Virus genome (UHGV): UHGV-0147886
Direction: 5' to 3' (one strand)
Length of the DNA: 12,817 bases
Source of the DNA: a virus
This document shows, in pieces, positions 1-12,444 of this stretch (positions are counted from its first letter, which is position 1; each line of letters starts with the position of its first letter). Under the pieces are notes generated by a model. That model was given only the letters and a program-made list of their open reading frames with translations, searched no databases and was not told the origin of the DNA. The position numbers and the translations under genes were made by a program.

Positions 1-40
1 CCGTAGTTTCATAGTCGAGTTGCAGATCTGCAACTCGCCA
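1..40. repeat. 40-bp direct repeat, copy A; contains a 22-bp perfect palindrome CGAGTTGCAGATCTGCAACTCG (16-37)
   Basis: Positions 1-40 are identical to 435-474 (40/40), with 3 of the next 4 bases also matching. The palindrome is centred on AGATCT and includes GATC. Confidence 0.9.
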
Positions 41-150
41 TCAGTCAGGGAAATTTTGTAATTTCACGGGGGTTAAAATTCGAAGAGGCGGGCACTCCAA
101 GAGATAAGAGACGGTAGGGATTTTGCTACCCCTCCTGAATGCAATTTTTC

Positions 151-323
151 GTATATATATACAAAACAGTGCGGGTTATGCGGGTTAGCGGGTTATCTTC
201 GCGTGCTAAGTATTTTTTATTATTTAATATCAATGCGTTGAAAAATGACATGTTCAAATGTTAGCCAAATCGTAACCCGCAAGTCATTCAAAATAACCCG
301 CAACCTCTCTCAAATAACCCGCA
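151..323. repeat. Iteron cluster 1 (putative origin-like or cis replication region)
   Basis: Alternating GTATATATATAC tract at 151-162. Three tandem direct GCGGGTTA(T/G) units at 171-196. AT-rich spacer 197-272. Three inverted copies (A)TAACCCGCA at 273-281, 293-302 and 314-323 with 21-bp phasing. Same motif and layout as the cluster at 7846-7970. Confidence 0.6.
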
Positions 324-434
324 AACACATCAGGAAAGTGGGGCCAGTGATGCCACCGATCCCCTTTATTTGGGGATCGCGAGTAAGCCCCAAAATCTGG
401 GTGTTGCTCTTACTACCCAAACTACGGGTAGTTT

Positions 435-474
435 CCGTAGTTTCATAGTCGAGTTGCAGATCTGCAACTCGCCA
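435..474. repeat. 40-bp direct repeat, copy B; 22-bp perfect palindrome at 450-471
   Basis: Identical to 1-40. Lies 45 bp downstream (minus-strand sense) of the stop of the last head-module ORF and next to a 7-bp-stem hairpin at 484-501. Confidence 0.9.
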
Positions 475-518
475 CCAGTTGCTAAGTGCATTTTTGCACT
501 TTCGGTAATATCAACCAG

Positions 519-809
519 TTACCGCCGTAAGTGCTCCGGCTTCCTCCACTGGTAAGTATTTTTCGCGCTCTCCCTCCGTTGTTGAGAACGGCGACGGTAT
601 GCCAGCAACTCAAGAACTCTGGTTCGTATGTTGCGCATATCCACGCCGTTAAGCTCAATACCGTCACGGCGCATTACCTCAGCCACCACACGCGCGTAAT
701 TTTCGGCTATCACGCTGTCCGGCTGTGTAGCCTGTTCGTCAGGCTGACGACTGATTCCGGTAATGCGGCGAATTATTTTTAGTAGATCAGTTTCAGTCAT
801 TCTCGTCAT
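519..809 (-). CDS. Hypothetical 96-aa protein, translationally coupled to terL
   Basis: ATG at 809-807 overlaps the terL stop (ATGA overlap at 806-809). Last ORF of the head/packaging operon. No recognisable motif. Confidence 0.6.
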   Translation of the reverse strand: MTRMTETDLLKIIRRITGISRQPDEQATQPDSVIAENYARVVAEVMRRDGIELNGVDMRNIRTRVLELLAYRRRSQQRRESAKNTYQWRKPEHLRR

Positions 810-2455
810 ACCCCATCAAATGCCGCAAGTCGCTCTTTCTGGCTGTCGCTCATATCAAATGCAAATTCCTCATGCTCAGCCTGGAATGTGCCAAACGCCA
901 TCAGCGCCGCAACGCTCGGGTCTATCTTATTGGATGATTTTTTCTTGTTCGGCTTGATATTGGCGTTCGCGTCACTCTGCATCACAACATTACTCATTGA
1001 CCAGGCCAGCACCGGATCACCACGATGAACAATCACCTTCCGGTTAACAAAAACTTCGAACGATTTCGCCGCCGGACTAAAACGAAGGTACGTTTGCGGG
1101 AACGGCTCCACCTCAAATCCCGCTCCCTGTAGCTGCGTCCTCAGGTGCGTGGCGTTCCATGTATCGAAACCCACCAGCCTGATATTGAAATTCTCTGCAT
1201 CCGCCATGATGTCATCACGGATACGGTCATAATCAATGCAGTCACCCGGTGTTGTGCGTATCCAGCCCGCCTTTACCCACTGGCGATAGATGGCGCGGTT
1301 TTTATTGGCGGGGTTCTGTAGCTGAAATTCCGGTAGATAGTGACGTGAAACCAGCATAATCTTTTTACCGACCGGGAAGGCATAGCACACGCTGGAAATA
1401 TCGCTGGTTGATGATAAGTCCAGCCCCGCATAGCACTCCTGCCCGTATAAATCCGCCTCAGCGAACGTTCCGGCGCACTCCGCCCATGCACCGTTACCCA
1501 TCCACGGCGTAGCCCCCTGACACCAGATATTGAATCGCTTGGTGAGCATTTCCACCCACTGCGACGGAATACCCCGCGCTTTCTGGATGGTTGAGGCCAG
1601 TTTTTCACGATCGATATTGGGATTCGCCTTTATCCACATCGCCGGATCGTCAACCTCGCTTTCATCATCCAGCTCGTAAATCAGTACGAACATGGATTCG
1701 TTCACCTCTTCACCATCCAGTATCTGGCAGCAATAGTCGTAGTGTTGTTTACAGGCTGAAACAACGTTGCTCCCCGATGTGGTGATGGCAAATAACAGCC
1801 CCTCCGGACGCGCCCCCATCCCCAGTTCAAGTGCGGAATAAACCCCGTTGTCTGGGTGCAGGTGATATTCATCCACAATGGCAAGACTCGGGTTTGTCCC
1901 CTCAATGGTTGCCGCTTTTGCTGCCAGTGGCTTTAACAGGCTGTTGGTTTTCGGGTGTATCACCTTGTGCGCCTGAATATTTACCCGCTTTCGTAACGGT
2001 CGGGATAAAAGGCACATCTGACGCGCATCATCAAACACGATCCGCGCCTGATCACGACTCACGGCGGCGGTGTAAATATCCTGCTGCCCGTTTTCCATAA
2101 CCAGAAACCAGTTAGCCAGGATAGCGGCGACCGTGGATTTGGCATTTTTTCGCGGTACTTCAATGAATGCGCTGGTGTATTTGCGCCGTCCGGTGGCCTT
2201 AACCTTAAATCCCAGGATGCAGGCAAAGGCGAACTGCTGCCACGGCTCAAGTTCAATGGGGCTACCGCGCATTGCGCCTTTTACGTGCGGGCACACCCGG
2301 GAAAAGGCAATAAACCGCTCCACGACCTCCGGATCGAACGTGTAAAGGGAGTTTTCAAGGTCAGAAAAATACCGTTTAACAGCCTGTTTCAGTCGTTTAC
2401 AGGCCGTAATTTTGCCGTTTTTTACGCCTTCTGCGTACTCATGCCAGGCGGTCAA
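806..2455 (-). CDS. terL: Phage terminase large subunit (TerL)
   Basis: 549-aa ORF with Walker A-like VPRKNAKST and Walker B-like LAIVDEYH in the N-terminal half and a C-terminal nuclease-like region. Directly downstream of terS with 17-nt overlap. First codon at 2455 is TTG, preceded by AGAGGA; no in-frame ATG nearby, so the exact start is uncertain. Confidence 0.9.
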   Translation of the reverse strand: MTAWHEYAEGVKNGKITACKRLKQAVKRYFSDLENSLYTFDPEVVERFIAFSRVCPHVKGAMRGSPIELEPWQQFAFACILGFKVKATGRRKYTSAFIEVPRKNAKSTVAAILANWFLVMENGQQDIYTAAVSRDQARIVFDDARQMCLLSRPLRKRVNIQAHKVIHPKTNSLLKPLAAKAATIEGTNPSLAIVDEYHLHPDNGVYSALELGMGARPEGLLFAITTSGSNVVSACKQHYDYCCQILDGEEVNESMFVLIYELDDESEVDDPAMWIKANPNIDREKLASTIQKARGIPSQWVEMLTKRFNIWCQGATPWMGNGAWAECAGTFAEADLYGQECYAGLDLSSTSDISSVCYAFPVGKKIMLVSRHYLPEFQLQNPANKNRAIYRQWVKAGWIRTTPGDCIDYDRIRDDIMADAENFNIRLVGFDTWNATHLRTQLQGAGFEVEPFPQTYLRFSPAAKSFEVFVNRKVIVHRGDPVLAWSMSNVVMQSDANANIKPNKKKSSNKIDPSVAALMAFGTFQAEHEEFAFDMSDSQKERLAAFDGV

Positions 2456-2795
2456 GTTCGTCCTCTTCCTCTGTTTCCGGTGGATTTCTGCGACGGCTTA
2501 CCGGGTCAAAACCCAGCAAAGAAGCCATTTTGATCATTATTCTTTCTGCGTCAGCCTTTGCGCTCAGTGCGGGGTTTCTGCTCTCGCTGCCCTGACTGTT
2601 AACAATGCTGAACCCGCGCGTCGCAAGGTCTTCGACGGCTTTGCGGTATATAGAGTAGTTAACGCAATACAGTTCCAGATTGCTCCAGTCGGCGGGGGTA
2701 AGGTCTTCCCGCCCGGAAAGCTGGCGCGATTTTTCCTTCCACTGCCTGACCGCGATTTCATCCAGGTAAGCGGGGGCTTTTGGTGGTCTTGCCAT
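2439..2795 (-). CDS. terS: Phage terminase small subunit, P27-family-like
   Basis: 119 aa from ATG 2795-2793 (MARPPKAPAYLDE...). Size and sequence pattern match P27-family TerS and it sits immediately 5' of terL. The longer ORF to 2936 is read-through of the G-rich intergenic region and is rejected. Confidence 0.8.
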   Translation of the reverse strand: MARPPKAPAYLDEIAVRQWKEKSRQLSGREDLTPADWSNLELYCVNYSIYRKAVEDLATRGFSIVNSQGSESRNPALSAKADAERIMIKMASLLGFDPVSRRRNPPETEEEDELDRLA

Positions 2796-2811
2796 GTTCT
2801 TTTTTCGCCCA

Positions 2812-2840
2812 ATTATTTTCAAAAAAATTACCGTGCACAA
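2812..2840 (-). promoter_or_regulatory. Candidate sigma70-like promoter for terS-terL
   Basis: Minus strand reads TTGTGC (2840-2835), a 17-nt spacer, then AATAAT (2817-2812), about 20 nt upstream of the terS ATG. Hexamers read by eye, not scored. Confidence 0.35.
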
Positions 2841-2846
2841 AAATTT

Positions 2847-2906
2847 GAGGGGGCGGTCGGTGTCCGGCAGGGACGGTTTCGTCCTGAAAACCACCCCCAC
2901 CCCCTC
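2847..2906. other. Nested G/C-tract inverted repeat in the HNH-terS gap: candidate cos/packaging site or intrinsic terminator
   Basis: GAGGGGG (2847-2853) and CCCCCTC (2900-2906) are reverse complements and bracket an inner hairpin (2868-2886, loop GTTT). On the minus strand the structure is followed by AAATTTTT and further T runs. Confidence 0.35.
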
Positions 2907-3083
2907 TGACGGCCTCACCAGCGATTGCGAAAACATTCCATGACCTCGCGGTCACGGTCGGTTAATCGCTTCGCTGTGGTGCGTTTTGTGCGCCCTGTCC
3001 TGTTGGCTTTGTGCTCTGTCTCCTGTGTCTTCCATGTGTCACGCTGCCTTATCAGTCCACGTATCAGCCTGGTTTGCTCCTGT

Positions 3084-3524
3084 TCAGTCATCATCGCCAT
3101 ACATCCAGTCGTTACGGTGTGCCGCCCGTTCTTCCTGCTCGCGATACATGCCCGCTTTACGGTTTGTTTTCGTGGCTGGATCTTCCCGTGTCGTCTTACG
3201 GTTGTGGCACGTCTGGCACAATGCCTGGTGATTCCACTCAGGCCAGAAGAGAACATCACCGCCGCCATTGATGGGAATGATGTGATCCACCACAAGAGCT
3301 GGCGTATAAATCCCCTTAGCCAGACAACGCACGCATAACGGGTTTTTGCTCAGGTACAGGGCGCGGTATTTGTCCCACTGTCGGGAATACCCGCGCGCGC
3401 GGCGGTGTCCCCGTCTGGCATCCTCTGCACGCCATGCAGCCCGCCTGTGCTCTTCACACTTGCCGGACTTCACGCGCTTATTACAGCCAGGCTCAGTGCA
3501 TCGCCTTAATGGTTGCCACGGCAT
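3084..3524 (-). CDS. HNH endonuclease (phage packaging-associated)
   Basis: 146 aa. N-terminal Cys cluster CTEPGCNKRVKSGKCEEH and HNH core ...VVDHIIPINGGGD...WNHQALCQTCHNRK. Start ATG shares one base with the connector stop (TGATG). Sits next to terS, as is typical for HK97-like cos-type packaging modules. Confidence 0.85.
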   Translation of the reverse strand: MPWQPLRRCTEPGCNKRVKSGKCEEHRRAAWRAEDARRGHRRARGYSRQWDKYRALYLSKNPLCVRCLAKGIYTPALVVDHIIPINGGGDVLFWPEWNHQALCQTCHNRKTTREDPATKTNRKAGMYREQEERAAHRNDWMYGDDD

Positions 3525-3826
3525 CAGTACACCCCTACGTCACGATAAACTGACCAGAGCGCAGAAATAGCCATAGGCAGTTCCGAGTGCTCCACTGGTG
3601 AAACCGCTTCCCGGTTCTCGTACAGGAAAGCGATGTACATCAGGCAACCAACACGCATTGCCGGGGTAAATTCCAGCCCGTCTTCAAAACGTTTCCCGAT
3701 ATGCTTCTGGCAGGCTTCCAGCGCCGCATCGGTATACATTTTCAGAAGTTCGCCTTCACCGGATAAATCATCATCAAGTCGAAGATGTGCCCTGACTTCA
3801 TCAGGTGTAATTCTGGCTTCACTCAT
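3524..3826 (-). CDS. gp6-like head-tail connector/adaptor protein
   Basis: 100 aa from ATG 3826-3824 with RBS AGGGAG 5 nt upstream. N-terminus ...ITPDEVRAHLRLDDDLSGEGELL... matches the characteristic start of gp6-like head-tail connector proteins. Overlaps the portal stop by 8 nt. Confidence 0.7.
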   Translation of the reverse strand: MSEARITPDEVRAHLRLDDDLSGEGELLKMYTDAALEACQKHIGKRFEDGLEFTPAMRVGCLMYIAFLYENREAVSPVEHSELPMAISALWSVYRDVGVY

Positions 3827-5033
3827 CTTTTCTCCCTTTAATTTCCACAGTCTGTTTCCATGCCTGGCTGAACTCATCACCACCTTCACGCGGCGGCATA
3901 CCCTCACGCTCACGGGCTTCGTTCGGATTCATGATCCCGTTCTTAATCCCTTTCTCATACGTGGCATAACGTTCGGTGGGTGTGGCGCGTAATAAATCGG
4001 CTGAATCAAACTCAACCAGATAACGGGTACCAGGTACGGGAGAAGCCACCAGCAAAGCGGCCTTGATTTGCTGTTCGAAGTTCGCCAGCCACGGGCGCAT
4101 TGTCATGGTCAGAAACGCGCGGCTTGCCTCGCTGAAATTGCTGTAGGTGCTGTTGCTGTATTCCTGCAGAAAAATAGGCGATACGTTGAACATGCGGGCG
4201 ATGTCTTCAATGGAGAAGCGACGGGAGGCCAGCCATTCCGCATCCTGGTTACTCATTCCCAGTTGCCTGTAATCCATGCCCCCTTCAAGGATTGGCGTTT
4301 TTCCGGCATTTTTCGCCCCCTTGTAGCGTTCCAGAGCATCCAATGCCTGTTTACCTTTCACGCCGTCCAGCCATTCGCCTGACGTGATAATCCCTGCCGC
4401 CATCATGCCATCTTTCATAATGCTGGCTCCGTGACGCTGTTGAGCAAGGCCAAGCCCCAGCGCCTCACGGCAAATCGTGACGGGGGAACGCCCCAGAAAG
4501 CCATCATCCGAGGCATAGCGGAGATGCAAAACTTCTTCCTGTAAATACGTGCGCACCGTTCCTGTACAGGGTTCGGTGATGGTATAGCGGTATTTGTGTG
4601 CGCCTGTGCGTTCCGGTACAACACACCCCGGCGCATAAGGATGAAGTGATTTTGGCTGCCCGTCCTGCCCCCACTCAATAACCGCATAGGCGTTACCGTT
4701 CAGCAGGCAGTGACGCATCATTGTGCGTTTAAACTGGTAAGGTGTCTGGCACGAATTAGGCTGCTCATTCAGCAGAATATCTACCGGGTGACTGTCCAGC
4801 CATTCCCGCGCCTCCCTGCCCTTGTCATTACGTACCAGATACAGATAACACGGCATCGTGGCCACCGCCTCAGCGATGACAGAAACCGCATTCATCACTG
4901 CAGGCAATGATTCAGCCGTCCCGGCAGAAACATATTCTCCGGATCCGGTATTCGGTACGCCGGACAGCGCCAGAAAATCATCAATGGACAGGTTACGCTG
5001 CTCGCTTTTTTTACGACTAAAAGGCCACCACAT
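3819..5033 (-). CDS. Phage portal protein, HK97 family-like
   Basis: About 404 aa from ATG 5033-5031, which lies 1 nt after the protease stop (TGATATG). Size and sequence pattern, including a conserved C-terminal region (...FSIEDIARMFNVSPIFL...NPNEAREREGMPP...), fit HK97-type portals. The upstream extension to 5123 starts at TTG with no usable RBS. Confidence 0.85.
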   Translation of the reverse strand: MWWPFSRKKSEQRNLSIDDFLALSGVPNTGSGEYVSAGTAESLPAVMNAVSVIAEAVATMPCYLYLVRNDKGREAREWLDSHPVDILLNEQPNSCQTPYQFKRTMMRHCLLNGNAYAVIEWGQDGQPKSLHPYAPGCVVPERTGAHKYRYTITEPCTGTVRTYLQEEVLHLRYASDDGFLGRSPVTICREALGLGLAQQRHGASIMKDGMMAAGIITSGEWLDGVKGKQALDALERYKGAKNAGKTPILEGGMDYRQLGMSNQDAEWLASRRFSIEDIARMFNVSPIFLQEYSNSTYSNFSEASRAFLTMTMRPWLANFEQQIKAALLVASPVPGTRYLVEFDSADLLRATPTERYATYEKGIKNGIMNPNEAREREGMPPREGGDEFSQAWKQTVEIKGRKDE

Positions 5034-5034
5034 A

Positions 5035-5595
5035 TCACAACCCCGCCAGCTCAGACCAGCGATGACGATTATTTCCTGTCGGACGTAATTCAGGGTGCTG
5101 TGCAAACAACGAACGGTGGGCAATCTCCACGCCAGATTCTGGATAAGCAGGCATCGACGTTATTGTGATTTCACGGAGTTCAGCGGCGGTTACGGTACGC
5201 AGATACGGTTTTTGCGCGATACTCCACTCCTCGCATAATGCGCGAAAACCAAAGCTCATTCCTGTAATGTCGCCACGCTCCACCAGCGTAAGCACATCTT
5301 TTCCAAGCTGGGTATCCGGCGGTGTCAGTTCAAAACGTAACCCGGTGTTATCCTCAGTCAGTACCAGAGTGCCGGATTTGGTGCGCCCCAGCAGTTGGGT
5401 ATAGTCATGCTCATACAGGCAGCGCACATCATTACCCGTCGCCAGATAGTCAGCAAAAGCCCCCGGCGTGAACTGTTCGCGGAATTCGTCCCAGATAATT
5501 TCTGAAAGGCTGTTCCAGCGAACGGCATACCCCACCAGCTTTTTATTGCTGGCGGTCAGTTCAGATGTGCGGATTTCAAAATCGGTGTTTTTCAT
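5035..5595 (-). CDS. HK97-family prohead protease
   Basis: 186 aa with the prohead-protease pattern (...GYAVRWN...FTPGAF...CLYEHD...LGRT...GDITGMSFGF). ATG 5595-5593 with GGAG 7 nt upstream. Confidence 0.85.
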   Translation of the reverse strand: MKNTDFEIRTSELTASNKKLVGYAVRWNSLSEIIWDEFREQFTPGAFADYLATGNDVRCLYEHDYTQLLGRTKSGTLVLTEDNTGLRFELTPPDTQLGKDVLTLVERGDITGMSFGFRALCEEWSIAQKPYLRTVTAAELREITITSMPAYPESGVEIAHRSLFAQHPELRPTGNNRHRWSELAGL

Positions 5596-5606
5596 CGGTG
5601 TACTCC

Positions 5607-5637
5607 ATAAAGCTGAAAAAGGAGGCCGCAGCCTCCT
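5607..5637 (-). terminator. Intrinsic terminator-like hairpin between major capsid and protease genes
   Basis: On the minus strand, AGGAGGC-TGCG-GCCTCCT (7-bp GC-rich stem, 5620-5637) is followed directly by TTTTTCAGCTTT. Confidence 0.55.
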
Positions 5638-5649
5638 CCTTACTCATGA

Positions 5650-6819
5650 CTAGCCAGCTTTCATTTCCAGAATTTTGATGGCGTTTGAATCCACCACACC
5701 ACCGCCCAGATATTTATCCGTGTGGACCTTGTAGAATCCGGGTTCAGTAATGTTGTCCGGTCGGGTGCGAATCCCTGTTACATGATCAACGATGAAATAA
5801 CCACGACTGAAATCGCCAACCGCCAGCGGTGCTTTTCCTGCGCCGATGTCCGGCATGGACTCCAGGCAGTAAACAGGACGACCAAGCAACATATCCGGCG
5901 CACCGTCTTTAAGGCTGTCGCGCCAGATATAATCGCCGTTCTCATTTTTCAGCTTCTGTAGTGTCCCTGCCGTACCCGAGTTCATCACCCAGACGGCATT
6001 TTTGCGGTATTTCGCTTTCAGCTTGTAGAGAATGTCGATCAGTTCGTCCGCTGTAATGGCGGTTCCACTTGCCGCTACCATTTTTTCAATGGTGCCAAAA
6101 GCGCGGGTTTTGTCACTGGTCGCCGCACGGGTGTAAGCCATGAAGCCTTTCGGCTTGCCGTTACCGTCGCCATTAACAAAATCATCCTCTTCGGTGCTGG
6201 CGAACGTGTCGGCAATTTCGGAGGATAACCAGCCCAGAATATCCACCTCTGAAAAATCAAGGATTTCCTGCGTGGTTTTCGGGTAGGCGTAGATCGGATT
6301 CAGCTTGATGGTTACGCGTTCAATTTTCGGGGTGTTGGTTTCACTGCGTGCGCTGCCTTCTGTGCCTCGTCCTACAGTTGCGCCGCCAGTGGAAACCAGT
6401 TTCTGAAACTCATTTGATTTTGCAGTCTTCACGGTCGCGATCACGCGCATAACACTGTCATCCTGTAGCTGGCGCATGACTTCGCGATCGAGCTCAGGAA
6501 TTACGGTATATCCGCCATCCCTGCCGCTGTCAGTGCTGGTGGACAGTGATCGCACATCTCCGGTTACGATGTAGTTACGCAATTCATCAGATGATAATTT
6601 CTGGATGCCCGTTCCTGGCTTGCTGCGTTCTTCATCAGCCACAGACTCGAGGCGGGAAATTTCTGTGTCGAGGGAGTCGGCTTTTGCACGCAGTTCATCA
6701 AACTGTTTGCCCTCGTCATCGTTCAGGCTGCGGTTTTCACTGTCGGCTTTTTCCAGCAGGGATCGCATCTGGTTTTTCAGGGCGGTTTTTTGCTGGCGGA
6801 GTTCGATTAATTTCTTCAT
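5650..6819 (-). CDS. Major capsid protein, HK97 fold, with N-terminal scaffold/delta-like coiled-coil region
   Basis: 389 aa. The first ~100 aa are charged and coiled-coil-like (MKKLIELRQQKTALKNQMRSLLEKADSENRSL...), followed by an MCP-like body (...NGDGNGKPKGF...). First gene of the head operon, after a long untranslated leader. Confidence 0.9.
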   Translation of the reverse strand: MKKLIELRQQKTALKNQMRSLLEKADSENRSLNDDEGKQFDELRAKADSLDTEISRLESVADEERSKPGTGIQKLSSDELRNYIVTGDVRSLSTSTDSGRDGGYTVIPELDREVMRQLQDDSVMRVIATVKTAKSNEFQKLVSTGGATVGRGTEGSARSETNTPKIERVTIKLNPIYAYPKTTQEILDFSEVDILGWLSSEIADTFASTEEDDFVNGDGNGKPKGFMAYTRAATSDKTRAFGTIEKMVAASGTAITADELIDILYKLKAKYRKNAVWVMNSGTAGTLQKLKNENGDYIWRDSLKDGAPDMLLGRPVYCLESMPDIGAGKAPLAVGDFSRGYFIVDHVTGIRTRPDNITEPGFYKVHTDKYLGGGVVDSNAIKILEMKAG

Positions 6820-7052
6820 GAAGGTTTTCTCGTATTGGTTAAGATTCAGGACGTGAAACCAACACGGAGGGAGCGCCGCCCGACACTCTCGGCATCTCGC
6901 AGATCAACCCGGCATCGCGCAGGGGGTCAGGCGGCATTGTGGCGGCTCACGTCTGAGTGCCACACGCCAACATATACATAAAAATCAGTATGTAAATATC
7001 AGCCAGAATCACTGAACAGCCAGAAACAACCACGAACAAATAATTTACAAAA

Positions 7053-7084
7053 CCTGAAAAAAAGACCCGGGAAAAATCCGGGCC
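7053..7084 (-). terminator. Rho-independent terminator closing the replication operon
   Basis: On the minus strand, a GGCCCGG/CCGGGTC stem (5-7 bp, GC-only) with loop ATTTTTC is followed by TCTTTTTTT. Lies 10-40 nt downstream of the 82-aa ORF stop. Confidence 0.6.
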
Positions 7085-7093
7085 TTTATCGCT

Positions 7094-7342
7094 TTACTGT
7101 TTCACGGGATCGCGCATTCTGCGCCTTATTTTCCACAAATATTCGATCATCGCTTCCACCTGCTCACGGTTGGTTGCGAAAATTTCCCCGGTCAGTGAGC
7201 TGCGCAGAAAATCATGATGATCCACAACAAATAACGCATCGGAAGAAAGCAGACGGCGATATTTTTTTGCTGTCGTGGTTTCCAGATCATCAATACCATG
7301 AAACTTTTTATGTTGCTGAACTTCTTCAAATGTCACTGGCAT
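7094..7342 (-). CDS. Hypothetical 82-aa protein
   Basis: ATG 7342-7340 with strong RBS AGGGGGA. 17 nt downstream of the ssb stop and followed by the terminator. No recognisable motif. Confidence 0.6.
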   Translation of the reverse strand: MPVTFEEVQQHKKFHGIDDLETTTAKKYRRLLSSDALFVVDHHDFLRSSLTGEIFATNREQVEAMIEYLWKIRRRMRDPVKQ

Positions 7343-7359
7343 GTATCCCCCTGTTATCG

Positions 7360-7782
7360 CTAAAAGGGTATGTTATCCCCGTATGGATCATCATTCCCCG
7401 CCTGTTGCTTAGCCCTATTTAGAGCGTCAGTAGCCTGACCCTGCTGGCCTTTTTTGCCACCAGGTCGCGCCGTTCTGGCACTGATTACGCTGTCTGCGAT
7501 AACCTGCCAGCCCTGCCGCGTTTCCCCGTTCTGGCCTGTCCACTGGCTTACCTGCATGTTACCCGCCACGCTCACCAGCTCGCCTTTGTGGTGTTTTGCC
7601 AGTGCGTCGGCCTGTCTGCCAAACGCCAGGACGGATAACCACATCGTCGCCTGTCCGTCATCTGCCTGATTGCACGGCAGGTGGACCGCCATGCTTGCCA
7701 TAGCCATTTGTGTGCCCTTGCTGGTGGTCTTTAACTGCGGGTCAGCCACCAGCCGCCCGTAAGCTGCTATCTGTGCTGTCAT
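7360..7782 (-). CDS. ssb: Single-stranded DNA-binding protein (SSB)
   Basis: 140 aa. OB-fold SSB pattern (...WLSVLAFGRQADALAKHHKGELVSVAGNMQVSQWTGQNGETRQGWQVIADSV...) and an acidic C-terminal tail ending DDPYGDNIPF, like the conserved bacterial SSB tip ending DIPF. Confidence 0.8.
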   Translation of the reverse strand: MTAQIAAYGRLVADPQLKTTSKGTQMAMASMAVHLPCNQADDGQATMWLSVLAFGRQADALAKHHKGELVSVAGNMQVSQWTGQNGETRQGWQVIADSVISARTARPGGKKGQQGQATDALNRAKQQAGNDDPYGDNIPF

Positions 7783-7845
7783 GCTGTCTGTTCTCCGGTT
7801 TTAACGTTGATAGTTACGCTTGTTTACACCCTTACGGTGAAATTC

Positions 7846-7970
7846 TGCGGGTTATAATCGCACTTTTGCGGGTTATAACTGCCGTTTTGCGGGTTACGTG
7901 CGGGTTATTGATTTCCTTTTTATTCATACAGTTAATTCACTTATACACAGGATAACCCGCATAACCCGCA
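7846..7970. repeat. Iteron cluster 2 (putative origin-like region), immediately 3' of the replication protein gene
   Basis: Four direct TGCGGGTTA(T/C) units at 7846-7855, 7867-7876, 7888-7897 and 7899-7908 (21-, 21-, 11-bp phasing). AT-rich spacer 7909-7951. Two inverted ATAACCCGCA units at 7952-7961 and 7961-7970. Confidence 0.65.
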
Positions 7971-7993: not shown

Positions 7994-10117
7994 TTAATCG
8001 TCTGCCTCAGGCTGGAACATCATCACGTAAAAAACATGCTGCTTACCCCCAATTTTGCCGAGCGCCTTTTTCTTGTAACGGCGATCGTTACCCGCTTCCA
8101 GCATTCCGGCAGCACTCAACGCGCGGGCAAAGTGAGACGGATTAAATCCCTGTGCTATCTCACCCTCAAACACATGAGGAAACGTGTAAAAACGGAACTC
8201 ATCATCTTCATTTCTGATACTCCCCTTTCTGTATCCGGCAAGGTCTTTAATCGGTAAATCACGCTCATCACTGTTTGGGTAAGGAAGGTATCGACTGAAC
8301 CCGAACGACGACAAAAACGCCTCAGCCTGTTCAACCATCTGTTTAAATTCCCTGTTACCCGTGCCGAACTCCTTCACCCAGGCATTAAAGTTATGCTGTA
8401 TTGCGTCCCGGCATTCCTGCGCGGCCCAGCCAGTTACATGACCGGAAAGCACAAGCGCAGCCTCCAGTATGGCGAAACGTTCCCCCACGCGGTGGACCTG
8501 CTCGCCGTAGCTCTCCGGTATCAGGTTGTGCCACCGTTCGCGGCATTCCCTTACCGTGTCCTTTGCCTCCTGCTGGTGGTCTGCCAGCCATTTAACCCAC
8601 TCACGACCCGCCGCCCCGTGATTTGCAGTCCAGGCATCCTTTAACGCGTCTGCGTGCGCCTTTCCGGTGCTGTATTCGTGAAATTGCGTGGCTTTCTCCA
8701 TCGGTACGTTAAGCAGACGGACAAGCTGGCCTGCTTTGACTTTTACCCCCTCACTTTTGAGGAATGTCTCAACATCCATTTCTCCGGTGCTGATTGCCAC
8801 CGTGCGCCAGTGTTTGATCTCCCTGTTGCCGCCGTCCTTCGCCCCCTGTAATTTCCCCGAACCGTTAAACAGCGTATAGGCTGACGTGGACACTTCCCGC
8901 GCGTTTCCGGCCTGGCCTATTTCATCCAGGGGTAACAGCCCGTCGTTGTGTGCTTCGGCCTCGTTGGCGATACCTAACGCCGTTCCGTACCAGGTCAGCC
9001 GTTGCGCGTCCGGCTCTCCCCATAAACTTGAAGCGATGTTCTGCGTGGTGGTTTTCCCTGCCGATGACTGTTCGAAAAGATGTACCCCGAAGCCGTCAGC
9101 ACCAACAAGGCCAATCAAAGGTGCTGCCAGTGACGTGGCAACACCCAGCATCATGGACGGATTGCCACCAGCCAGCCGCGCCACGCTGTCGCGCCAGCCC
9201 TCCGCCGTACCCGCAACCGAATAGCCATTAACAGCGGCACTTTTTCCGGTAAACAGGATCGGTTTTTCAGAATCACCAATGATTGAACCGTCCGGCATGA
9301 TGTACGCGCCAAAATGCCAGCCCGTTGTTGTGCTTAACTGCCATTCCTCATGGCTTCCGCTTAACTGCATCCAGTCAGCCAGGATAGCCCTGTATTTGCC
9401 ATTTGTTGTCACATTCAGCCCGTGATCTTTAAGCAACCGCCAGCCGTCACGGTCGCCAATGCCACCACACGGGATCGCCATTGTGATGACTTCATGGTTT
9501 GCTAATTTTTTCCAGCGCATCACGCGGTAATGCTCTTTACCGATCGTCCCCGTTCCCAGTAGTTCAAGCGGAGAACATAACCACGTCTCAGGCCGGATAA
9601 TTTCGCCTGACTGCTTATCCACTTTGGGCGTTACCCAGAAAACACCATCGACGCGACTTTCAACGCGGGGCTTTAATTCATCATCCTGATAGCATGGCTC
9701 TTTTTTCTTTACAGGCAGTTCAACTACCTTTTTCTTTTCCGCCTGCTCTGCCCGTTCACGTTCCAGATATTCGCGCCAGTTCTCCCGTTTCTGGCTGTGC
9801 ATTCCTTCAGGATAATAATCAGCATCCCTGACACCTGCCGCTGCCAGTTTCTGCCCGATGGTATTAACAAGCCCCGGACGCAATAACCCCGCCTGATAGA
9901 GACGCACGCGATAGCGTCCGTCCGGTACGATTTGCAGGTTGTCCAGTTCGGCAAGTTGTTGCTCTCCAAGCCAGACAGGAGGCACGTTATCGCCAGCCAG
10001 TCGCCCGTCCTGTTCCTGCCACTGCTTCGCATGTGCCCACGCATCACTACCCGCAAAAATGATGACTTCCGTCATTTTGTCACGCGGCTGGTGTTTTAAA
10101 TTTGGCGCTTTTTTCAT
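7994..10117 (-). CDS. Replication initiator, P-loop NTPase of the primase-helicase type (SF3/DUF927-like)
   Basis: About 707 aa from ATG 10117-10115 (RBS GGAGAG; ATGA overlap with the upstream ORF; alternative GTG at 10132). Central Walker A ...EQSSAGKTTT... and Walker B ...LLPLDEIG.... Followed directly by the iteron cluster. A primase function for the N-terminal domain is inferred from context only. Confidence 0.75.
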   Translation of the reverse strand: MKKAPNLKHQPRDKMTEVIIFAGSDAWAHAKQWQEQDGRLAGDNVPPVWLGEQQLAELDNLQIVPDGRYRVRLYQAGLLRPGLVNTIGQKLAAAGVRDADYYPEGMHSQKRENWREYLERERAEQAEKKKVVELPVKKKEPCYQDDELKPRVESRVDGVFWVTPKVDKQSGEIIRPETWLCSPLELLGTGTIGKEHYRVMRWKKLANHEVITMAIPCGGIGDRDGWRLLKDHGLNVTTNGKYRAILADWMQLSGSHEEWQLSTTTGWHFGAYIMPDGSIIGDSEKPILFTGKSAAVNGYSVAGTAEGWRDSVARLAGGNPSMMLGVATSLAAPLIGLVGADGFGVHLFEQSSAGKTTTQNIASSLWGEPDAQRLTWYGTALGIANEAEAHNDGLLPLDEIGQAGNAREVSTSAYTLFNGSGKLQGAKDGGNREIKHWRTVAISTGEMDVETFLKSEGVKVKAGQLVRLLNVPMEKATQFHEYSTGKAHADALKDAWTANHGAAGREWVKWLADHQQEAKDTVRECRERWHNLIPESYGEQVHRVGERFAILEAALVLSGHVTGWAAQECRDAIQHNFNAWVKEFGTGNREFKQMVEQAEAFLSSFGFSRYLPYPNSDERDLPIKDLAGYRKGSIRNEDDEFRFYTFPHVFEGEIAQGFNPSHFARALSAAGMLEAGNDRRYKKKALGKIGGKQHVFYVMMFQPEADD

Positions 10118-10413
10118 TTCTGCTCTCTCCACGCGGCAATCATGTTTTTCAGTTCCTGTAGTTTTTTATCCACATCCACACGTGACACATGGTTATTTCT
10201 GGAAAGCGGGATTTCCCGCCGGAATCTGCAAATAAAGATCTCCACGTTCAGCGAACTATGAAATGAATAGCCATCACGAATAAAATAAACACGGTCAAAC
10301 ATCAGTTCTTTTACCGTTACTCTGTTACCGTTCTTATCCAGATAAATAGCGCCGGGGATAATTTTGGGGTGTGCATAACCGCTGGCAGTCAAGCCAGATA
10401 AATATGTTCTCAT
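10114..10413 (-). CDS. Hypothetical 99-aa protein
   Basis: ATG 10413-10411. Stop overlaps the replication protein start (ATGA). Part of a tightly coupled operon. No recognisable motif. Confidence 0.55.
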   Translation of the reverse strand: MRTYLSGLTASGYAHPKIIPGAIYLDKNGNRVTVKELMFDRVYFIRDGYSFHSSLNVEIFICRFRREIPLSRNNHVSRVDVDKKLQELKNMIAAWREQK

Positions 10414-11670: not shown

Positions 11671-11734
11671 TCAAATTGCCCACCAGCCAGCAAATCGCTA
11701 TGATGTTCGAGCTTATGTTTAGTGTTTTCCCATT

Positions 11735-11763
11735 GGCGACCGCCCCCGGTCGCCTTTGTTTTA
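11735..11763 (+). terminator. Rho-independent terminator for the plus-strand unit
   Basis: GGCGACCG-CCCC-CGGTCGCC (8-bp stem, 4-nt loop, 11735-11754) followed by TTTGTTTTAT. On the minus strand the hairpin has no T tract after it. Confidence 0.7.
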
Positions 11764-12444
11764 TGCGCGATCATGTGCCGCCTCCCACTCATATTTATCG
11801 AAATCAATCTGCCCCATCGCATCTACCAGCCGTACCGCCGGACGCAGAACTTTGAGTTCCTTCTTGCGGATATTCATTCCATTACTGCCCTGTGAGCCAT
11901 GAAACTGCTTAGAATGCTTGTCCGCACGAGTCACGGCGTTTTGCGCATCAGTAACCGGCATGGCGATCAGTTCTTCGAGCGACGGCAGATCCACATGATG
12001 GAAAGTGACAAACTCCGGGCAACGGAAATAAGTTTTCACGAGCTGGCGCTGTACCTGCCAGGCCAAATCATCGTTAAACGGTTTGGTCAGCAGCAGATAG
12101 CCTGATTCCGTAATCAGTGTTACGCGGCCACGTATCGGACTGTTCATTTTTTTGCCAGGGCGTTTAATGCCCCTGTCTAAATATCCAGCCCCTCCCCATT
12201 CGACCTCTGACGCGCCGACAATAAAAAAGTCCTCACCATCAATGAAGCGAGTGCGATTACGCTGAAAAGTCTTTTTAGCCGTGTCTTTAGGTCGCTGGTG
12301 CGCGGTATCAATCATTGCGAACGTCACCACGCGTTGCCCGTGAAATTCGACGGCAGGAAGCTGTTTAAGCTGCACGCTAATATCGCTTTTACTGGCAACA
12401 GGGTGAGCGAATCCCTGCCCGTTAAGGGCATTAATATTTTTCAT
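11761..12444 (-). CDS. ORF6N-domain (KilA-N-like) phage regulatory protein
   Basis: 227 aa. N-terminal region ...GQRVVTFAMIDTAHQRPKDTAKKTFQRNRTRFIDGEDFF...LITESGYLLLTKPFNDDLAWQVQRQLVKTYF matches the ORF6N pattern (RG..VMLD.DLA..Y...TK.LN.AVKRN..RFPEDFMF...AFTE.GV.ML...). ATG 12444-12442. Confidence 0.65.
   Translation of the reverse strand: MKNINALNGQGFAHPVASKSDISVQLKQLPAVEFHGQRVVTFAMIDTAHQRPKDTAKKTFQRNRTRFIDGEDFFIVGASEVEWGGAGYLDRGIKRPGKKMNSPIRGRVTLITESGYLLLTKPFNDDLAWQVQRQLVKTYFRCPEFVTFHHVDLPSLEELIAMPVTDAQNAVTRADKHSKQFHGSQGSNGMNIRKKELKVLRPAVRLVDAMGQIDFDKYEWEAAHDRA

Follow-up and report, generated by a model that had tools for sequence, protein, structure and literature searches.

The 12,817-nt stretch analyzed here (virus genome UHGV-0147886, referred to as the window) covers the larger part of a capsid-forming phage-inducible chromosomal island (cf-PICI) of Escherichia coli, which measures 15.6 kb in total. 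It carries two clusters of short repeats (iterons), one directly downstream of the replication gene rep (cluster 2, or unit B) and one at a distance of 7.6 kb, beyond the head and packaging genes (cluster 1, or unit A). Comparison with related islands identifies the clusters as the putative two halves of one iteron-type PICI replication origin, which is present here in a split form.

The 8-mer GCGGGTTA occurs 12 times in the window, compared to 0.35 copies expected by chance, and all copies are confined to the two clusters, at positions 171–322 and 7847–7969. Likewise, GCGGGTTAT is found in nine exact copies (0.09 expected), a number attained in none of 200 shuffles. A search of the window allowing one mismatch revealed no additional iteron cluster. 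These counts bear out an earlier note on this DNA, which had described two iteron clusters with a shared motif approximately 7.6 kb apart and had expected the motif to be enriched. In flanking host DNA of related loci only scattered single copies of GCGGGTTA were observed, at about 1 per 10–25 kb, and the motif is therefore not a host-wide repeat.

Cluster 1 is preceded by a (TA)5 tract (152–161) and consists of three tandem plus-strand iterons (starting at 171, 180, and 188, with 9 and 8 bp spacing), an AT-rich spacer of 77 bp (196–272, with 25–27% GC at 201–260) and three minus-strand iterons in 21-bp phasing (273, 294, and 315). Cluster 2 contains plus-strand iterons starting at 7847, 7868, and 7889 (21 bp spacing) and at 7900 (11 bp), an AT-rich spacer of 45 bp (7908–7952, with 30–32% GC at 7900–7959) and two tandem minus-strand iterons (7953 and 7962). 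The two clusters had been thought to have the same layout. Both indeed combine phased and tandem iterons, an AT-rich spacer and inverted copies, but the layouts are mirrored: the plus strand of cluster 1 reads as the minus strand of cluster 2 (tandem, AT-rich, phased). The TA tract adjoining the tandem iterons is conserved in E. coli, E. albertii, and Serratia. Its conservation is compatible with the function as a DNA-unwinding element proposed in the earlier note. Among near-identical copies of unit A (L007–L077) the tract ranges from 4 to 7 TA units, which suggests slippage.

In PICIs and SaPIs, the origin follows the 3' end of rep and contains an AT-rich region flanked by iterons on either side (PMC6092414; PMC9371898). 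Cluster 2 starts 24 bp past the stop codon of the Rep gene (7994) and 64 bp from the start codon of the SSB gene, and is therefore at the known position of a PICI origin. Opposed iteron sets around an AT-rich region are present in both clusters. Cluster 1 is situated past the gene for the large terminase subunit (TerL) and a 96-aa open reading frame (ORF), at the 3' end of the head/packaging operon. Both placements agree with the earlier description.

The relationship between the clusters is seen in EcCIEDL933, the prototype cf-PICI of E. coli O157:H7. This island has a Rep of the same class (88% identity), GCGGGTTA iterons and the same late-gene set, with a TerL that is 92% identical. Homologs of units A and B are joined in EcCIEDL933 (L005 16000–16350) 3' of its rep, and there are no iterons at its distal end. 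Unit A of the window is 78% identical to the rep-distal half of this origin. Unlike in EcCIEDL933, where A and B are contiguous beside rep, the window island lacks a unit A at the rep-proximal site, and has it 7.6 kb off, beyond TerL, in unchanged relative orientation. We also fetched Rep relatives from 20 other Enterobacterales species, of which 19 had a readable origin. A contiguous B+A block of about 12 iterons is present in 12 of these 19 origins, and the iterons themselves are lineage-specific (GTGGGTTA, CGTGGTTCA, TGAACCAAC, TGGGATAA, CCGGTTCA). Unit A is characterized by a TA tract, three tandem iterons, an AT-rich spacer and phased inverted iterons. The commoner arrangement is rep, unit B and unit A abutting, in a dyad-like origin of approximately 315–350 bp. 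In the window island the SSB-to-TerL module lies as if inserted between the origin halves, and unit A is the final feature before the attachment site. Cluster 1 had previously been interpreted as a separate site resembling crr of phage P4. This view is not supported: cluster 1 appears to be an origin half that has been displaced, and EcCIEDL933 and most relatives have the same origin in contiguous form. A Yersinia pekkanenii contig (L086) has three full TGAACCAAC origin blocks within 6 kb (7144–7409, 11726–11991, and 12907–13202), which may reflect tandem or rearranged islands.

The presence of a distal unit A correlates with the arrangement next to rep. Among 13 complete E. coli islands, all nine with only unit B next to rep (L001, L002, L098, L099, L100, L102, L103, L104, L105) have exactly one distal unit A, at a distance of 4.5–10.5 kb, compared to none of the four with a contiguous origin (L005, L101, L106, L107). 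When the islands are treated as independent, a Fisher estimate of approximately 0.0014 is obtained. Eight of the islands were selected by unit B and the Rep C-terminus only, and then added to the earlier complete islands; within this set a single distal unit A is found in 5/5 B-only islands (at 4.5–10.5 kb) and in 0/3 contiguous ones. The nine split islands span at least five backbones and attachment sites, and about 20 more split cases were identified in IMG/VR contigs. Three IMG/VR contigs (L008, L014, L024) seemed to be B-only counterexamples, but all three are truncated approximately 0.7 kb short of the position at which complete genomes with this backbone have their unit A. A genome-wide search yielded a median of one unit A site per genome, and when two such searches were cross-matched, A and B shared one strand in every case and were ordered A ... 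B-rep. Unit A points the same way with respect to rep in all split and contiguous cases, as well as in the orphan cases discussed below. The distance between A and B is 2.1–10.8 kb across islands that keep unit A; the near-exact half-circle spacing of the window island (7.7 of 15.6 kb) is therefore probably a coincidence.

The iterons of unit A are conserved to a greater extent than their surroundings. Among 29 distinct distal copies, the nucleotide diversity (pi) is 0.008 in iteron columns (4/48 variable) vs 0.13 in the other core columns (50/123 variable; p = 2e-5), so that the iterons are about 15-fold less variable than the spacers. The TA tract varies in length only. Split origins also recur with other iterons (TTGTCCCA, TGAACCAAC) that match unit B and the C-terminal domain of the Rep encoded by the same island. 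The distal module of E. albertii retains the left arm (Table 1) and the TA tract, but has GTCCCA-type iterons that match its own unit B. In Serratia (L088, L089, L095), TGAACCAAC iterons are present in unit B and in a unit A located 2.1–6.2 kb away, with genes for MazF toxin in one island and tail/baseplate-like genes in another as the intervening cargo. In a sibling island of strain D8, rep has been swapped for a gene of the P4 primase family and there is no unit A. Instead, nine TGTTCACC repeats form a single cluster 3' of the primase gene (L003 12740–12960), and no second site is found; the type I iterons of P4 consist of this octamer. Because of the one-A-plus-one-B rule, the purifying selection on the iterons and their covariation with Rep in three specificity classes, the comparative evidence fits a requirement for both sites and predicted binding of both by the C-terminal domain of Rep.

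Based on sequence comparison, the Rep of the window is related to the self-loading helicases SaPI Rep and SCCmec Cch. Its best relatives of solved structure are the SaPI 'Pathogenicity island protein' (PDB 8tch, E = 7e-15) and the SCCmec helicase Cch (5dgk). It matches the Cch1 helicase model of NCBIfam below the cut-off, and does not match TIGR01613, the model for P4-family primases. The Rep of the D8 sibling matches TIGR01613, also below the model cut-off (95 vs 108.7 bits). In SaPI Rep, a C-terminal winged helix binds the iterons (PMC9371898). The last ~110 aa of the window Rep (coded at approximately 7997–8326) are the predicted iteron-recognition domain. Throughout the relatives this part tracks the iteron type and not the phylogeny of the helicase core: Reps of the GTCCCA type have cores of 94–97% identity but a C-terminus of just 35% identity, and Reps of the GTGGGTTA type have a core of 76% and a C-terminus of 66–68% identity. 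For the C-terminal 132 aa, a single-sequence AlphaFold prediction reached a pLDDT of 41 and could not be used. At the other end of the protein, residues 1–146 (window 9695–10132) are 95% identical to the primase-type Rep of D8 (L003 14355–14792), and the two proteins are unrelated thereafter. The neighboring SSB shows 96% identity between islands with the DUF927 version and those with the P4 primase. The boundary at residue 146 marks a recombination joint within rep, through which the enzyme is swapped along with its origin.

Taken together, we consider it probable that the window island has a bipartite origin, with differentiated halves that are both needed in cis, tolerate separation and are both bound by the C-terminal domain of Rep. 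Once the island is induced, the DUF927 self-loading helicase/initiator would use its C-terminal domain to bind the GCGGGTTA iterons at both units, in each of which opposed iterons would flank an AT-rich melting region, as in SaPI origins. The two units would be non-redundant and required in cis. Cooperation between them may come about by Rep-Rep contacts, with the intervening 7.6 kb looped out, as in P4 ori/crr and the gamma and alpha/beta sites of R6K; alternatively, each unit may load one of two helicase hexamers. We put forward more tentatively, as a possibility, that PICIs with this Rep class in general have a bipartite origin whose halves are functional kilobases apart, always bracket cargo or late genes when split, and leave no other feature between unit A and the attachment site.

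Several observations weigh against a strict need for both halves. Intact GCGGGTTA copies of unit A are found at the distal end of islands that have a Rep and a complete origin of their own with other iterons: in STEC316 (L004, with GTCGTCCCA/TTGTCCCA as its own iterons), in BH100N (L006, with a primase-type Rep and GTAGACA) and in three IMG/VR contigs (L047, L049, L054). The pairing of unit A with its Rep is therefore not absolute, and unit A can persist without a cognate Rep in cis. Such orphan copies may be leftovers of rep-module swaps, or origins for a Rep supplied in trans. Conversely, in Serratia silvae (L085) unit B is present, and no unit A was found within 10 kb on either side. All distal units of E. 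coli share the left arm of ~100 bp, suggesting that they probably descend from one event that was spread by recombination; the nine and four islands compared above are in that case not independent observations. Moreover, each unit by itself resembles a complete SaPI-type origin, and the need for both is deduced from their retention. The published rep-ori plasmid test used EcCICFT073.

The resemblance of each unit to a complete origin raises the question whether A and B are two independent and individually sufficient origins, with the contiguous forms being tandem double origins that need not cooperate. Each has the published minimal SaPI layout, with at least two opposed iterons on each side of an AT-rich center, and the orphan copies of unit A could be stand-alone origins for a Rep acting in trans. 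However, redundancy predicts frequent loss, yet every complete E. coli island examined has exactly one A and one B, and the units are differentiated across genera, with the TA tract, the three tandem iterons and the 77-bp spacer being found in unit A only. We therefore regard independent origins as unlikely. The orphans also speak for a different explanation, in which the distal unit A is a portable origin that hitch-hikes on (or acts as a decoy for) the Rep of another island, or is a leftover of module shuffling without a present role. At least five islands combine a non-cognate Rep with a GCGGGTTA unit A that has 5–6 of the 6 iterons intact, and Rep modules do recombine, as is apparent from the identity of the N-terminal 146 aa (95%) and of SSB (96%). 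Such a role leaves unexplained why unit A is present in all B-only islands and in none of the contiguous ones, and why, in E. albertii and Serratia, a change in the island's own Rep is accompanied by a change in the distal iterons. A neutral remnant would not hold iteron diversity 15-fold below that of the spacers. In addition, no GCGGGTTA unit B locus was found in the two source genomes of orphans sampled by IMG/VR, although this is weak evidence. On balance, a trans-acting or relic function is an improbable account of the distal unit.

Iteron arrays outside plasmid origins often act by titration or handcuffing. The distal cluster could accordingly be a locus for negative control similar to incA of P1, that titrates Rep or pairs with the origin to limit or time replication, and the selection on iterons away from rep would be in line with this. 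Unit A indeed lies outside the rep-proximal site, yet it belongs to the origin itself in relatives with the contiguous form and contains the most easily melted sequence (the TA tract and a spacer of 25% GC), which is atypical for pure control arrays. A brake would also give little benefit to a satellite that needs fast amplification after induction, and we consider a control function very unlikely.

Several systems are known that can be compared with the bipartite origin proposed here. The window origin shares with PICI and SaPI origins a location directly 3' of rep and opposed short iterons around an AT-rich center (Ubeda et al.; Fillol-Salom et al., 2018, PMC6092414). It also has in common with them a predicted self-loading helicase/initiator related to SaPI Rep, whose specificity appears to track the C-terminal domain, and residence in a phage satellite that also carries genes for integrase, Rep and packaging. 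It differs in consisting of two such units 7.6 kb apart with the entire late-gene module in between, and is thus a member of the PICI origin class in split form. In a limited search of the PICI and cf-PICI literature, we did not find a description of a second, distal iteron cluster or of a split origin.

P4 replicates with two separated cis sites, ori and crr, that contain the same initiator-binding repeats and act over kilobases. The earlier note had proposed a system of this type for the window. What remains of the likeness is the presence of two separated sites with the same repeats on one replicon (171–322 and 7847–7969), in a small helper-dependent satellite and with a presumed action over kilobases. 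The assignment itself is not supported: Rep has a DUF927 core and is not an alpha-type primase-helicase, the P4-family primase model matches the Rep of the D8 sibling and not that of the window, and the iterons are GCGGGTTA, not of the TGTTCACC type. The architecture differs too: long direct repeats make up crr, and inverted iterons and a TA tract are the features of unit A, a putative half-origin. In plasmid R6K, distant initiator-bound sites (gamma, alpha, and beta) are thought to cooperate in cis by looping. Iteron-bound initiator sites kilobases apart are a common feature, but R6K relies on the Rep_3-type initiator pi and on loading of host DnaB, not on a self-loading helicase.

PICI and SaPI origins are regarded as single, compact blocks that follow rep, and their position is used for annotating these satellites and for building mini-replicons. 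If the natural origin is split, clones containing rep and the adjacent origin of many E. coli cf-PICIs may miss an essential half. Should both halves be necessary, a self-loading MCM-like helicase/initiator would either cooperate through DNA loops of 2–11 kb or load its two hexamers separately, and these islands would offer a simple system for how such initiators act at a distance. The conserved halves would also serve as fixed anchor points for the exchange of late-gene and defence cargo, offering an explanation of how late-gene, toxin-antitoxin or tail-like cargo is slotted in. Orphan copies of unit A would allow replication by the Rep of another island, and a split origin would bear on incompatibility and cross-replication of co-resident satellites.

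The identification of the island is based on its gene set and on near-identical islands in other E. coli strains. A 96.9%-identical island is located between hpt and gcd in E. coli PEC209, and with KSC9 included the identity at this site is 96–98%. A 22-bp direct repeat at L001 5660 and 21290 bounds the island over 15.6 kb. The tyrosine integrase adjoins gcd in the PEC209 and KSC9 relatives and falls just outside the window, and cluster 1 is inside the island, approximately 0.6 kb from the end away from the integrase. The element is therefore a small, repeat-bounded island (within ~10–20 kb) with an integrase at one end. According to Pfam, the window encodes capsid, protease, portal, connector, HNH, small (TerS) and large terminase, SSB, Rep and DUF4222 proteins, all on the minus strand, as are a helix-turn-helix regulator and an ORF6N antirepressor-like gene. 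The head and packaging genes are of the HK97 type (Pfam; RefSeq annotation), and no tail genes are annotated in the full near-identical islands. The features are listed in Table 1.

Table 1. Coordinates of the origin halves, their flanks and neighboring genes in the window.
Feature	Position	Strand	Basis or remark
Left copy of repeat R, last 45 nt	1..45	.	Remainder upstream of window start; full copy L001 6001–6127
Conserved left arm of the distal module	54..150	+	Alignment of 40 unit A copies
Unit A (cluster 1), predicted displaced half-origin	151..323	+	TA tract, iterons, homology to EcCIEDL933 origin
Right flank of the distal module, conserved as CA(A/C)ACACATCAGGAAAGTGGGGCCAGTGATGCC	324..351	+	
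Right copy of 128-nt direct repeat R	352..479	.	Highly structured; brackets unit A
96-aa ORF after TerL	519-809		
DNA between the origin halves, SSB to TerL	806..7782	-	Pfam; RefSeq annotation of near-identical islands
TerL	806-2455	-	
Prohead protease, portal, head-tail connector, HNH, TerS	within 806..7782	-	
Major capsid	5650-6819	-	
82-aa ORF	within 806..7782	-	
SSB	7360-7782	-	
Unit B (cluster 2), predicted rep-proximal half-origin	7846..7970	.	Iterons, homology to EcCIEDL933 origin, published PICI origin position
Rep gene, 712 aa, DUF927 core	7994..10132	-	Pfam DUF927, E = 8e-48

In the alignment of 40 copies, the left arm accompanies every distal unit A and is missing from contiguous origins. 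Repeat R contains a perfect palindrome of 22 bp (CGAGTTGCAGATCTGCAACTCG) and is predicted to fold into 3–4 hairpins (dG -30.6 kcal/mol, z = -7.5), with three GATC sites within the stems. It is single-copy at the integrase-distal end of islands without a distal unit A, and is doubled only in the lineage of the window.

Other functions were considered for the region of cluster 1. An ORF that overlaps it (245–448) has no family match, and insertions and deletions occur in that stretch among copies. There is no Rfam match to a known RNA in the region or in the whole window, and counts of promoters and terminators in the surroundings equal the shuffle level. A function as packaging (cos) site for TerL was rejected, because EcCIEDL933 packages without a distal cluster and classic PICIs that lack TerL carry the cluster too. 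Within unit B, a DnaA-box-like 9-mer (TTATACACA; elsewhere TTATCCACA) is found at 7941–7949, between the AT-rich spacer and the tandem iterons. It is retained in 33 unit B copies of the GCGGGTTA type, whereas unit A lacks it, as do the origins of all 19 loci from other genera. Three more matches are present elsewhere in the window, and an involvement of DnaA is given little weight.

The gene content and location of the islands vary further. Two near-identical cf-PICIs (L099 3048–20256 and L104 4038–21246) reside inside the large terminase gene of lambdoid/HK97-like prophages (compare PMC10111431). In this helper-embedded configuration, the distal unit A is the final feature before the split prophage TerL gene. 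In E. coli SCU-105, the interval from unit B to the distal unit A (L102 3267–10928) has no head genes, and contains three very large hypothetical proteins (~690–920 aa) and small ORFs, possibly defence cargo. Finally, several copies of a motif resembling AATATCAACCAGTTACCGCC are present in different islands on the far side of TerL and the 96-aa ORF (at approximately 500–525 in the window, L005 7360–7780 and L006 16640–16750), about seven of them in EcCIEDL933. A protein could bind to these sites, perhaps in packaging.

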